64,000 nt of DNA from an uncultured Planctomycetales bacterium (GCA_964374105.1 CAYJXI010000006.1:2177-66176); one strand, 5' to 3'. Positions 1 to 6,842 are shown, numbered from the stretch's first letter. Notes: a model not told the origin generated them from the sequence alone. Translations and numbers: made by a program.

Positions 1-447
1 GGTGTTGAATCGGTCGGCACGGTTGTTAATGCCATTTCGTGTACTACACCTTGGAAGCTCGGTGATGGGATTCCAACGCTTGCATTCAACCAGATGATCA
101 AGGGAACCTGCACAGGAAGCTGTCTTGCTGCGACATTTACCGGCTATTATCACTGTAACGATCCTCTCCATCCTGATGGGCATTGTATCATTGACGATGC
201 CGATATCGAGACACGGGCCAATAAGGCTGATCGATACGGCGGCCCCTATTACAGCCTCTATGAAAACTGCACACGTGGGAGAGAATGGAATATGGAAGCG
301 ATTATGGTTCATGAAGTCGGTCATCTGCTTGGCTTGGGGCACTCAGACGTTGTTGGATCCACCATGTATCCTTCTGTATCCTCTTGCAATGCCGACCCGG
401 CGACCATTTCAAATGATGATGCGGCTGGTCTTGATGTGCTGTACTAA
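1..447 (+). CDS. Zinc metalloprotease, metzincin/matrixin-like, C-terminal fragment. It is 5'-truncated by the window edge; frame 1 is open from nt 1
   Basis: HEVGHLLGLGHSD matches the metzincin zinc-binding motif HExxHxxGxxH. The frame is open from position 1 upstream of the first ATG. Confidence 0.6.
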   Translation, partial: GVESVGTVVNAISCTTPWKLGDGIPTLAFNQMIKGTCTGSCLAATFTGYYHCNDPLHPDGHCIIDDADIETRANKADRYGGPYYSLYENCTRGREWNMEAIMVHEVGHLLGLGHSDVVGSTMYPSVSSCNADPATISNDDAAGLDVLY

Positions 448-780
448 GCTCAACCGAATAATCCACAGGAATATGTAGGCACCAGACACTAATTTCTAAA
501 ACATCCTGCCAAAGCACTGGCGTTTATCAGATTGAAGAAATTCAAGTCAAGCCCGTCTCCTTGGTGCTCAAAATAAAAGACAAAATAGTCTTAAATTACC
601 CGTGTGATAAAACCAAACGTATGAGTTGGGCAGGGAGTTTTCTGCCTTGGGCAAGGCAAGAGAAGGATGGACTCTTTTTGATGACACTGCCCTCCATATA
701 TCTAAGTCCGCTTAGCAACAATCGCTGGCAATTAAATAACGACAGAAAAATCTTTGCGCCGGTGATAAAGGAGTAGATTT

Positions 781-870
781 TTTAGGGAAACGATGCATCA
801 AATAGTGGCCGGGCGGCCACTATTGGGGAAGAGGGAAGCGGTAGCCCCGTTTAGGGACGGTCACATTCTC
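781..870. repeat. Copy A of the recurring cassette-boundary repeat; the perfect 24-nt palindrome AATAGTGGCCGGGCGGCCACTATT lies at 801-824
   Basis: Seen directly in the sequence. It shares a 30-nt identical block with the copy at 3993-4023. It is flanked by the TTTAGGGA direct repeat. Confidence 0.8.
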
Positions 871-877
871 ATAAGTT

Positions 878-1411
878 ATGAAAAATTACTGTACATATTG
901 TACAAAGGAAATTGAGAATGACGTTGTTTTGTGCCTTGATTGCTCAGCTAGATTCCGATCTGATCCAAGCATGGCAATGGAAATTGCTACAAAGTATGTT
1001 AATTTCATTGGAGAACATCCAGAGATACAAAAGAAAGCTATTATGGTTGGTCTACCAGAAACGATATTACCTTATAACCGAGTTGTTATTAAAACATCTA
1101 TGCAGATTATGCTGTTGGCAATCAATGCTGATGTCTCAAAGAATCCTGTGAAGGAGCATTTAGAAAAAAGAGATAGTATTGAAGGTTGCTATCTAACGTT
1201 GCACAATTTCCAGTCTATGGTAGATTTACCATTCCCAGAGCTTTGCAATTATAAAGAAGATAGTGTTTCAGTAATGGCTAAGTTAGGGGAAAGATTAAAA
1301 GATAGCGAAACGGCAGAAGCATATATGACGTGGGAGTTAAAAAATGTAATTACACAGAAAAAGTACGAGAGGATGTTAGACAGATTGAGGATTCCTGTAC
1401 CGCACGACTGA
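878..1411 (+). CDS. Hypothetical protein with an N-terminal CxxC...CxxC zinc ribbon
   Basis: 177-aa ORF with CTYCTKEIENDVVLCLDC at the N-terminus. It overlaps the start of the downstream RusA-like gene, which suggests co-transcription. Confidence 0.4.
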   Translation: MKNYCTYCTKEIENDVVLCLDCSARFRSDPSMAMEIATKYVNFIGEHPEIQKKAIMVGLPETILPYNRVVIKTSMQIMLLAINADVSKNPVKEHLEKRDSIEGCYLTLHNFQSMVDLPFPELCNYKEDSVSVMAKLGERLKDSETAEAYMTWELKNVITQKKYERMLDRLRIPVPHD

Positions 1412-1428
1412 AATGTAACGAGTATTAT

Positions 1429-1905
1429 ATGTCACCAAAGAATCCTCTATATACAATTTGGGTCGATGGGAAACCGTTGAATTATAGAAATAAAAGTAAA
1501 CGTATTAGAGCTGCTTACAAAGGCAGAATTCAAACTGAAGCAAAAAAAGTGGTTAATAATCCGTGGAGTTCTAAAAGAATAGATGTGGAAATATGGTTCT
1601 CCGCAGATTCTGCCGTACGCCCAGATGTCGATAATGTTGCAAAACCAATATTGGATGCTCTACAAGGGATTGTCTACGTAAATGATTTTCAGGTACGCTC
1701 AGTTAAGGTAGGATGTATACCAAGAGATGGTGCCTTTGAATGTGAAAAAGAAGACCAAAAAGATTTTTTTAGATTACTTGATACTAATAAAGAAGAGTTT
1801 TTAATAAGAATATTTTACGGTATGTCAATTTCCAGGAAAAAATATGGTAACATCGTTTGTTATCCAATTAAAATGTTTCGAGAAAAATTTAAAAGTGATG
1901 CCTGA
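1429..1905 (+). CDS. RusA-like Holliday-junction resolvase (crossover junction endodeoxyribonuclease). The six-frame ORF opens at 1330; the likely start is the ATG at 1429
   Basis: Matches the RusA family signature (D-x-D-N...K-x-x-x-D-x-L, then a hydrophobic D-D). Relevant residues: RIDVEIWFSA, PDVDNVAKPILDALQGIVYVNDFQV. Confidence 0.6.
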   Translation: MSPKNPLYTIWVDGKPLNYRNKSKRIRAAYKGRIQTEAKKVVNNPWSSKRIDVEIWFSADSAVRPDVDNVAKPILDALQGIVYVNDFQVRSVKVGCIPRDGAFECEKEDQKDFFRLLDTNKEEFLIRIFYGMSISRKKYGNIVCYPIKMFREKFKSDA

Positions 1906-1934
1906 TCCCCCATGAAGGAAAAAGGGCAAAAAAA

Positions 1935-5511: not shown

Positions 5512-5523
5512 CACCCATCCATT

Positions 5524-5735
5524 ATGATAAATTTCACAAATTTTTATTGTAGGTTGGTTGTGAGTTTGTACGGCAAAAAGGGAGCCATCGAATTTATCAA
5601 CGCGCGGATCTCAAGAGACCCATCATCCTTCCTGTAAGAAAAGAAATTCCGATTTTTATCATTCTGAACAATTTACGCACTTTAAATATCTCCAAAGAAA
5701 AATATATTGAGATTATAAATAATAAGGTTAAGTAG
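5524..5735 (+). pseudogene. hicA: HicA-family mRNA interferase toxin, frameshifted. The ATG at 5524 is in one frame; the homology continues from 5553 in another
   Basis: The frame starting at 5553 reads VGCEFVRQKGSHRIYQRADLKRPIILPVRKEIPIFIILNNLRTLNISKEKYIEII. This matches the HicA consensus (GWelvRqkGSHhiy...PvHk.elk.Gtl.sIlkqagis.eef). It is preceded in-frame by a TAG at 5550-5552, and the only ATG (5524) is in a different frame. Confidence 0.5.
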
Positions 5736-5789
5736 CAGAGTAGATGTTTACGCTGGTTTTTACTTCGTGATCTACCCAGCGCAATTTTC

Positions 5790-5818
5790 TTGTCTAATAA
5801 ACGGGCTTCCACTATAAT
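5790..5818 (+). promoter_or_regulatory. Conserved promoter-like module (TTGTCT, 17-nt spacer, TATAAT); copy 2 of 2. A terminator-like hairpin follows at 5859-5895
   Basis: Hexamers with perfect -10. The hairpin AAGGCGGAcagaaaactaTCCGCCTT plus a T-run lies 40 nt downstream, before the Mrr_N gene. This is compatible with a short (about 70-nt) transcript or an attenuator. Confidence 0.4.
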
Positions 5819-5939
5819 GCGGGACGTGGAAGAGACGATAAACATATAAAATTTTGATAAGGCGGACAGAAAACTATCCGCCTTTCTTGTTTTCTGGACT
5901 ATTTTGAACTAACGGAGGTTTTATTGCAGGAGATGAGGC

Positions 5940-6362
5940 ATGAAAGGCCCACAATTTATTAAGTATTTTGTTCCGGTGATTCAAGCCCTCAAAGAGTTGG
6001 GTAATTCAGGGACACCTTCTGAAGTGCGGGAAGTAATTATAAAAAATCTGAAAATTCCTGATTCTGTTTTAAATGAACAAGTGAAAAGTGGTACATCAAG
6101 ATTTGATAACAAGGTGGCCTGGGCACGCTTTTATTTAGCAAAAGCTGGTTATCTTAATTCCTCCAAGCGTGGCGTTTGGACTTTTACAGAGAAGGGTATC
6201 AATTCGACGTTAACGGAAAAGGAGGCTTTAGAACTTTTTCAAAGCATCCAGAGGACCTTTCATAAAGAAGAACCCCAGGTTGAAAATTTGGAAGAAGAAG
6301 TAGCTCCCTCTGCCCCGGGAAATATTCATTCTGGTAAGTATCGGGAAGAATTTTTAAATTGA
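5940..6362 (+). CDS. Standalone Mrr_N (restriction-system Mrr N-terminal winged-helix) domain protein
   Basis: FVPVIQALKELGNSGTPSEVREVI...KVAWARFYLAKAGYLNSSKRGVWTFTEKG matches the Mrr_N pattern (vgWArtyLkkAGLlespkRGvw.iTe.G). No nuclease domain follows. Confidence 0.6.
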   Translation: MKGPQFIKYFVPVIQALKELGNSGTPSEVREVIIKNLKIPDSVLNEQVKSGTSRFDNKVAWARFYLAKAGYLNSSKRGVWTFTEKGINSTLTEKEALELFQSIQRTFHKEEPQVENLEEEVAPSAPGNIHSGKYREEFLN

Positions 6363-6711
6363 CGCGTGAGGAGATTATGAACTTATCACAAATTGTGATA
6401 AGTTCTAGAATCAAACGTGCCCCTAATGTTTTTGCCTTCACAGAACAGGGGGTGGCGATGCTGTCCAGTATTTTGAGAAGCAAGAGAGCCATAGTGGTTA
6501 ATGTTGCTATTATGCGCACTTTCGTAAGGTGGAGGGAATTTATCTCTACTCACAAAGAATTAGCCTATAAACTATGAAGAGCTTGAACGAAAAGTTGGAC
6601 AGCATGATCAGGAAATCCGTACTGTCTTTGAAGCCATTCGGCAGCTCATGACCCCGCCTCCTGACCCACCCAAACGAAGAATCGGCTTTCTTGCAGATTA
6701 ATAATGAAGAA
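6359..6711 (+). pseudogene. ORF6N (KilA-N-like, phage antirepressor-associated) domain gene remnant. It is N-terminally truncated (TTG start) and frameshifted near 6570-6580
   Basis: Frame A reads NVFAFTEQGVAMLSSILRSKRAIVVNVAIMRTFV. A shifted frame (6588-6711) reads EELERKVGQHDQEIRTVFEAIRQLMTPPPDPPKRRIGF. Both match the ORF6N-family consensus (yaFTEqGVaMLSsvL.S.rAi.vNi.ImRaFv ... vfeAIrqLm.pp...kr.IGF). Confidence 0.5.
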
Positions 6712-6842
6712 AGGTCGCGCTTAATAATTAGAAGCGAGGTCTGTGTTTCAATAGATTGCAGAGGGTTTTTAATTGAGGTAAAATGGACATAAGTTTGGGT
6801 AAACTCAATACGGTTCTGTGGAGAACAGAAAGGAAAAGAAAA

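Follow-up and report, generated by a model that had tools for sequence, protein, structure and literature searches.

A probable decaying defence, toxin-antitoxin and phage-remnant islet without detectable attC sites in an uncultured Planctomycetales bacterium

We examined a 64-kb stretch of DNA from an uncultured Planctomycetales bacterium (the window), the first 6,780 nucleotides of which carry eleven short genes, all on the plus strand. A preliminary description had read this locus as an integron-like array of repeat-delimited cassettes. We favour, at a probability of about 0.65, a different reading, in which positions 1-6780 are an ordinary accessory islet of defence, toxin-antitoxin (TA) and phage-remnant genes that was acquired piecemeal by horizontal transfer and is now eroding. 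Judged by the definitions of Cury et al. (2016, PMC4889954), the visible locus is neither an integron nor a CALIN, the latter being a cluster of attC sites lacking an integrase, which calls for two or more attC sites less than 4 kb apart; an integron-like mechanism was not supported. As it stands, the locus would be one more small defence/TA islet decaying in place, and it cautions against diagnosing an integron from co-orientation, small genes and a few repeats where the whole chromosome segment is co-oriented.

Gene modules and lesions of the islet

An open reading frame (ORF) listing combined with profile searches recovered all eleven genes of the preliminary description. Ten of them could be identified, from a profile match or from the sequence itself; HicB could not. 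The encoded proteins are mutually unrelated. The locus opens with an M10 metzincin gene, the 3' two-thirds of which occupy positions 1-447 (Peptidase_M10 at 94-447, Pfam PF00413, 2.3e-14). Although it had been called a fragment, this gene is clipped by the window edge only, and a complete 229-aa version is present in three Logan contigs (L001, L002 and L007) that overlap the window at 100% identity. In L007, positions 378-1675 hold a 201-aa secreted-looking ORF followed by the full metzincin gene. The second gene of the window encodes a 177-aa ORFan (878-1411), in whose N-terminal part a CxxC-x10-CxxC motif can be read from the sequence itself. It had no Pfam match at E up to 0.01, its best sub-threshold zinc finger being Prok-RING_1 (E = 0.034), and a search of 1.84 billion representative proteins returned, apart from the ORFan itself, only a 2221-aa repeat protein and a single relative that is 21% identical. 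The 2221-aa protein, its only strong relative, gave 30 separate matching stretches, the best of them against ORFan residues 11-66, and part of the ORFan thus appears to resemble a repeat unit. Downstream lie a phage-type RusA-like Holliday-junction resolvase (1429-1905; PF05866, 1e-9; phrog_140 and phrog_34) and a 208-aa protein with a signal-peptide-like N-terminus (1935-2561). The latter had no Pfam or PDB match, and its XAC2610-like domain stayed sub-threshold, at 30.7 bits against a cut-off of 35 for NCBIfam NF047539.

A wHTH-MNT nucleotidyltransferase gene, encoding an antitoxin-type partner (2738-3322; PF18765, 1.3e-9; PADLOC PDC-M05A, 8.9e-54), adjoins a split HEPN toxin gene, whose N-terminal 32 codons lie at 3300-3395 and whose HEPN domain part lies at 3522-3908, with the profile match at 3534-3908 (PF05168, 4.2e-7; PADLOC PDC-M05B, 6.2e-21), so that both profiles of the PADLOC two-gene candidate system PDC-M05 were matched by adjacent genes. 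These are followed by a gene for a Ymh (TIGR02391) HEPN-type protein (4153-4935; Hypoth_Ymh PF09509, 1.6e-22) and by a 100-aa ORF (5209-5511) that is HicB-like by position only and overlaps a hicA pseudogene (5499-5735; PF07927, 2.6e-9 on the read-through translation) by 13 nt. The 100-aa ORF had no Pfam, NCBIfam or PDB match, and its structure model was too poor for use (pLDDT 51); the HicB label that it had been given is therefore based on position alone and is not confirmed. The last two genes are an Mrr N-terminal domain belonging to a 3'-truncated type IV restriction gene (5940-6362; PF14338, 5e-22) and a 5'-truncated ORF6N or anti-repressor-like remnant (6359-6701; PF10543, PADLOC PDC-S05, phrog_4792). 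The truncations are evident from profile coverage: the Mrr_N protein covers only positions 1-94 of the 317 of PADLOC mREase_IV, and the ORF6N remnant, with its match at 6359-6577, covers only positions 48-86 of the 86 of PF10543 and positions 65-136 of PDC-S05.

About half of the genes are broken. Four gene modules, HEPN, HicA, Mrr and ORF6N, are inactivated by lesions, and the mention of several decayed genes in the preliminary description was borne out. The break reported there for hicA is a nonsense codon, an in-frame TAG at 5550-5552. The truncated mrr is joined to the truncated ORF6N remnant, the Mrr_N frame ending at 6362 and the remnant starting at 6359, and the remnant carries in addition a frameshift near 6573. 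About 20 nt 3' of the Mrr_N/ORF6N junction, in the first codons of the remnant, lies a perfect 24-nt palindrome (6380-6403), AACTTATCACAATTGTGATAAGTT, possibly serving as an operator or possibly left behind by the deletion or recombination event. The Ymh gene has lost its ancestral stop codon, and the last ~20 residues of its product are read-through into an intergenic repeat (B2, see below); the seven closest aligned Ymh homologues (67-70% identity) end after ...DSR, 12-21 columns earlier.

The HEPN gene is interrupted by an insert of ~125 nt at 3396-3520 that had escaped the preliminary description. It resembles a miniature inverted-repeat transposable element (MITE), with 15-nt terminal inverted repeats (strand not applicable). 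The segments on either side, 3300-3395 and 3522-3908, share one reading frame, as read directly, and the first in-frame stop after HEPN codon 32 is a TGA at 3426-3428, within the insert. Because the insert interrupts HEPN, the MNT-HEPN module is probably inactive. Folded as RNA, the insert forms one long hairpin (-60.8 kcal/mol, z = -6.5); the element, inserted in frame in the HEPN gene, also holds four internal hairpins. All five short-read contigs that reach it, from four sequencing runs and the NCBI assembly, break at 3383, 3411 or 3494. Since every short-read contig breaks there, the element is probably multi-copy in the genome, a conclusion drawn solely from these assembly breaks. Within the 64-kb window it has no second copy, and around it no target-site duplication was resolvable; searches for Rfam, viral, plasmid or phage matches returned none. 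In its terminal inverted repeats, its single long hairpin and its disruption of every short-read assembly, it is like known MITEs.

These observations are consistent with the following course of events. Separate modules would have come to lie side by side: an operon of ORFan, RusA and secreted protein, an autoregulated MNT-HEPN pair, a solitary Ymh gene, a hicBA pair and a fusion of an Mrr remnant with an ORF6N remnant. Decay would then have proceeded by insertion of the MITE-like element into HEPN, by a nonsense mutation in hicA, by a deletion fusing truncated mrr to truncated ORF6N, and by the ORF6N frameshift. The islet genes share a strand because nearly every gene of this chromosome segment does.

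Base composition points to mosaic origins. The GC content at third codon positions (GC3) is 0.23 for RusA, 0.26 for Ymh and 0.53-0.56 for MNT and HEPN, against 0.36-0.49 for background genes; overall gene GC is 0.34-0.45, compared with 0.43 for the window. The Ymh family is large and widespread, with 2727 matches at E below 1e-10, and close relatives of the islet's Ymh protein (68-71% identity in the homologue search) are found in different defence-type surroundings, which include SMODS, SNase, and PD-(D/E)XK with UvrD helicase. Four of the ten proteins searched matched PADLOC models, the islet contains the MITE-like element, and an ISL3 transposase gene is found 6 kb away. That part of the preliminary description which saw a defence-island cluster of small, unrelated defence, TA and phage-type genes therefore holds. 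Like known defence islands and TA-rich islets, the locus groups MNT-HEPN (PDC-M05), Ymh, a putative HicAB pair, PDC-S05 and what remains of a type IV restriction gene, and it shares with them mosaic composition, pseudogenisation and neighbouring insertion sequence (IS) and MITE elements. Nothing essential sets it apart from them; an alternation of two intergenic repeats, described below, is an extra that is not usually described in such islands. A search for pseudogene remnants in the spacers found none.

A degraded prophage or phage satellite, whose defence/TA genes would once have been 'morons' equipped with promoters and terminators of their own, would account for RusA and the ORF6N anti-repressor remnant, both of which match phage families (phrogs), as well as for a Peptidase_S74 tail-fibre-like gene 4 kb downstream and for modules with their own promoter-like sites. 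However, no capsid, terminase, portal or integrase genes were seen in the window, cellular-looking TPR and HEAT-like genes lie between the islet and the tail-fibre-like gene, no DNA match was found among 50,697 phage records, and in IMG/VR neither RusA nor the ORFan has a close relative. We regard such an origin for the locus as unlikely; for part of the islet, it is compatible with piecemeal acquisition.

Tests of the integron reading

We searched positions 1-7000 on both strands for attC sites. A strict search for RYYYAAC...GTTRRRY (R''/R') pairs 45-150 nt apart found zero on either strand, and the earlier remark that the repeats lack canonical boxes of this kind was correct. A relaxed search, in which the paired boxes had to end in AAC and to begin with GTT, with L-box pairing in addition, gave 5 candidates compared with 9.1 +/- 3.5 in shuffled sequence, and 1 'good' candidate where 1.03 were expected. 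Folding of the intergenic repeats, proposed earlier as a check for the bulged-hairpin architecture of attC, revealed no bulged hairpin, and one repeat family (B) folded no better than shuffles. The motif and pairing scans, strict and relaxed, together with the folding, led us to reject attC sites at this locus.

A recombinase was sought by comparing nearly all plus-strand ORFs of at least 120 aa, the giant 3371-aa ORF excepted, and the non-overlapped minus-strand ORFs with Pfam. Phage_integrase (PF00589) had no match in the scanned ORFs of the 64-kb window, and their sole recombinase was an ISL3 DDE transposase (13052-14125). Upstream of the window, where 1.2 kb is readable, no tyrosine recombinase is on record for the two genes found there. 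The integrase check suggested by the preliminary description was thus negative for the scanned ORFs, and on the upstream side it extends over these 1.2 kb only. The window contains no tRNA or tmRNA genes, by which att sites derived from them were ruled out.

The shared strand had been taken as a hallmark of sedentary integron arrays and of defence-island hotspots. Of the 32 genes elsewhere in the window, 30 also lie on the plus strand, so that co-orientation of the eleven means little; the chance of 11/11 is 0.49. Over the whole window the strand bias is extreme, with ~41 of 43 genes on the plus strand, and the cumulative GC skew rises throughout. Nor did we find the same recombination site at every junction or a predominance of promoter-less cassettes: three unrelated repeat families occupy some of the junctions, others lack repeats altogether, and four modules are preceded by sigma-70-like promoters in a consensus scan. 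With no attC-like sites, own promoters and repeats at some junctions only, the integron-like cassette array proposed earlier was not supported. The likeness to sedentary chromosomal integrons and CALIN lies in small co-oriented genes, in a cargo enriched for TA and defence, and in the short repeats that separate some of the genes. In contrast to them, the locus has no R''/R' boxes, no bulged hairpin, no attC found and no visible IntI, and it has three unrelated low-copy families at some junctions and several promoters of its own.

Repeat families at the gene junctions

Sensitive self-comparison, with significance judged against shuffled sequence, resolved the intergenic repeats, all of them on the plus strand. 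The two copies of repeat A, A1 (785-870) and A2 (3994-4081), are 82% identical over 88 nt (E = 3e-15), and the two copies of repeat B, B1 (2569-2642 in the alignment, 2569-2660 as an element) and B2 (4906-4979), are 70% identical over 74 nt (E = 1e-5). No shuffle attained either score, which places the two pairs far above chance. Since similarity between A and B was not above shuffles, a single repeat family was rejected: the repeats noted earlier are real, but what had been listed as one family of four copies is in fact two two-copy families. A third two-copy family, C, was absent from that list, as was the MITE-like element. C1 (4980-5026; promoter module TTGCCT-16-TATAAT) is contiguous with B2, and C2 (5781-5828; promoter module TTGTCT-17-TATAAT) lies upstream of Mrr_N. 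Their local score of 19.5 compares with 9.1 +/- 1.3 in shuffles (0/1000) and is above the maximum of 908 tiles elsewhere. A search of the repeats against Rfam found no RNA family even at E up to 5. Inspection of B excluded a diversity-generating retroelement type of repeat, its mismatches not being adenine-specific and no reverse transcriptase being present.

Repeat A is rich in hairpins. A1 holds two hairpins, of which one is GC-rich and perfect over 10 bp (801-824) and the other degenerate, and A1 ends 8 nt 5' of the ORFan start codon (878). A2 contains two hairpins (fold z = -2.4), the second with the core GGTGTCCCCGTTGGGGGACTG. A partial copy, A0, is located ~1.06 kb upstream of window position 1 (L007:120-215) and has the core GGTGTCCCCGTTNGGGGACTG in common with repeat A; the GGTGTCCCCGTTGGGGGACTG core of the second A2 hairpin is also common to A0, the core in common being 21 nt long. 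The A0 hairpin (21 + 6 bp, -50.2 kcal/mol, z = -6.1) precedes a pyrimidine/U-rich (CU-rich) tract and has the look of a terminator serving the gene whose end is at L007:82. B1 starts 8 nt 3' of the stop codon of the 208-aa gene, and B2 overlaps the 3' end of the Ymh gene. A possible degenerate third copy, B0 (453-491), begins 6 nt after the metzincin stop codon; with a local score of 14, against 9.3-9.8 +/- 1.4 in shuffles and up to 15.5-16 in unrelated window tiles, it is marginal. The resulting order is A0, metzincin operon, possibly B0, A1, ORFan-RusA-208aa, B1, MNT-HEPN, A2, Ymh, B2-C1, hicBA, C2 and Mrr_N/ORF6N, with several gene junctions lacking any A, B or C repeat.

Promoter-like sites, called by a sigma-70 consensus scan only, are present at 2665, 4989, 5156 and 5790, before the MNT-HEPN, hicBA and Mrr_N modules, in agreement with the promoter-like modules noted earlier. 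The site of the MNT-HEPN operon (2665-2713, plus strand) combines TTGACT-17-TACAAT with two tandem 7-6-7 palindromes (2672-2713) that have identical arms, TGTAATA-N6-TATTACA, form a 22-nt tandem repeat and lie over the MNT -10 region. Judged from this arrangement, 2665-2713 is a probable autoregulatory TA operator of the MNT-HEPN operon. The long leader between C1 and the hicB-like ORF contains a perfect (GAAAGTG) x 3.7 tandem repeat at 5080-5105.

Under the reading that we favour, A, B and C would be old, diverged, low-copy duplicates of intergenic junction sequence that today most plausibly act as transcription punctuation. A would be a hairpin or terminator-like element placed between the end of one operon and the beginning of the following one, B-C would be a post-stop element with an outward promoter, and the modules after B1, B2-C1 and C2 would use their own sigma-70-like promoters. 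We infer that the repeats probably arose by local duplication or recombination as modules were gained and replaced. In forming stable hairpins in intergenic DNA, repeat A is like repetitive extragenic palindromic (REP)-like repeats; A, B and C differ from these and from MITEs in being low-copy, diverged, confined so far to one locus and without an Rfam family.

Several points weigh against this reading. A and B alternate (A0 ... B0? ... A1 ... B1 ... A2 ... B2), and twice A stands just 5' of the first gene and B just past the last stop around unrelated cargo, a regularity of bracketing that random duplication does not predict. All three families are restricted to 6-7 kb, none being found in the other 57 kb of the window, where further copies of A or B were sought. 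On the plus strand, repeat A does not have the form of a canonical intrinsic terminator, the transcriptional roles of A, B and C are consensus-level inferences only, and the upstream sequence is readable for 1.2 kb only. Because the bracketing is not predicted by an islet assembled through local duplication, we kept two explanations of low probability, in which A and B would be junction sites or element ends.

The first is a cassette array of a non-integron kind, in which A and B(-C) would be the diverged junctions at which a site-specific recombinase, encoded upstream of the readable sequence, inserted or exchanged small modules, as in the recombinase-associated acquired interbacterial defence clusters (rAID-1). 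In this system of Bacteroidales, genes in one direction and repetitive sequence between them are described as following an XerD-like recombinase at the 5' side (bioRxiv 10.1101/471110), and the locus shares with it short co-directional genes, skewed or heterogeneous GC and repetitive intergenic sequence. The alternation of A and B, with its two instances of bracketing around unrelated cargo, and the confinement of the repeats to the locus speak for such an array. So do B-type sequence 6-8 nt past two stop codons and ~30 nt past the ancestral Ymh end, the 9-mer GTGGCCGGG common to A1, A2 and B1, and a cargo protein weakly resembling XAC2610 (immunity-protein). On the other hand, no recombinase was seen in 65 kb, and no XerD-like enzyme in particular on a 5' side that is readable for 1.2 kb only. 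Each family has two solid copies only, at 70-82% identity, most junctions lack them, and A resembles B no better than shuffles do. No copies were seen in GTDB representative genomes or JGI metagenomes (repeat A), in viral contigs (A core, B and the MITE-like element) or in plasmid and phage records (whole region); the Ymh homologues examined elsewhere have no A/B flanks, and the four samples show no structural variation. The cargo differs as well, rAID-1 carrying orphan immunity genes and the locus mainly TA, restriction and phage remnants, with one sub-threshold XAC2610-like match. We consider this explanation very unlikely. If it were true, the A/B bracketing would represent a second non-integron gene-cassette mechanism beside rAID-type arrays, free of attC, in a lineage without sequenced relatives, and the system would stock small defence, TA and immunity modules.

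The second takes A and B as the left and right ends of non-autonomous transposable elements carrying passengers, for example hairpin-ended, strand-specific derivatives of the IS200/IS605 type, that were inserted repeatedly and mobilised in trans. The perfect hairpin of A is conserved and still palindromic despite an indel, identity ends sharply at the 5' edge of A, every unit has the same orientation, and the genome hosts small mobile elements (the insert at 3396-3520 and ISL3). B, however, has neither a hairpin nor a stable fold; A and B have no terminal inverted repeats or matching hairpins in common; neither a TnpA-type nor another matching transposase was found in the window; and no target-site duplication is recognisable. 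Short-read assemblies run intact through A and B and break at the MITE-like element and at a 250-nt repeat further downstream, which argues against recent identical copies of A or B elsewhere. Transposon ends are the least probable of the explanations that we weighed, behind the islet of piecemeal origin.

Relatives and surroundings of the locus

Every contig with a portion of the locus runs collinear with the window, at 99.97-100% identity, and together these contigs represent one population, the one found in ERR3478686, ERR4904390-92 and GCA_947085705.1. Gene content is identical across the available assemblies, all of which come from this population, so that their agreement is no measure of conservation, and no structural variation was found among the four samples. 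The lineage is essentially unsampled, without sequenced relatives. A 620-aa HEAT-like protein encoded beside the islet (7732-9594) has no homologue in GTDB representative genomes and found only itself among 5.8 billion proteins; because it lacks relatives, a comparison across genomes by way of a conserved flank was impossible.

Searches of public collections with the repeats gave a similar picture. A 20-mer of repeat A had no match in GTDB representative genomes, and a 19-mer had two chance matches with dissimilar flanks in JGI metagenomes. The A core, B and the MITE-like element had no match in viral contigs, and a blastn comparison of the whole region with plasmid and phage records returned only a 75-nt conserved stretch of Ymh coding sequence. 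A 40-aa ORF encoded by repeat A had no relative among 5.8 billion proteins. The contigs of three Ymh homologues (P0004, P0006 and P0008) were examined, and no A- or B-like flanks were present beside the gene; for these homologues, the idea that A or B travels with the Ymh gene was rejected.

Downstream of the islet, a 250-nt direct repeat, 99% identical between 9773-10022 and 14268-14517, brackets a Peptidase_S74 tail-fibre-like gene (10609-12843) and the ISL3 transposase gene. The second copy comprises the promoter and first 14 codons of a MORN-repeat gene, of which the first copy is a truncated duplicate. The transposase frame apparently stops early, at 14125, and ISL3-like C-terminal coding continues to ~14267. 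The exact transposase protein is on record in two contigs only, and the one inspected is a 100% match to the window.

The window as a whole encodes PEP-CTERM, dockerin, MORN, ankyrin, HEAT and TPR repeat proteins, a content that suggests an unusual, uncultured organism. The giant 3371-aa ORF has internal repeats and is directly followed by a 1199-aa subtilase (Peptidase_S8), the two spanning 15856-29602. Further on, a 353-aa internally repetitive protein (45543-46604) with no Pfam match is encoded downstream of a c-di-GMP-I riboswitch (45256-45346; Rfam RF01051), which scored 37.6 bits and so exceeded the gathering score.

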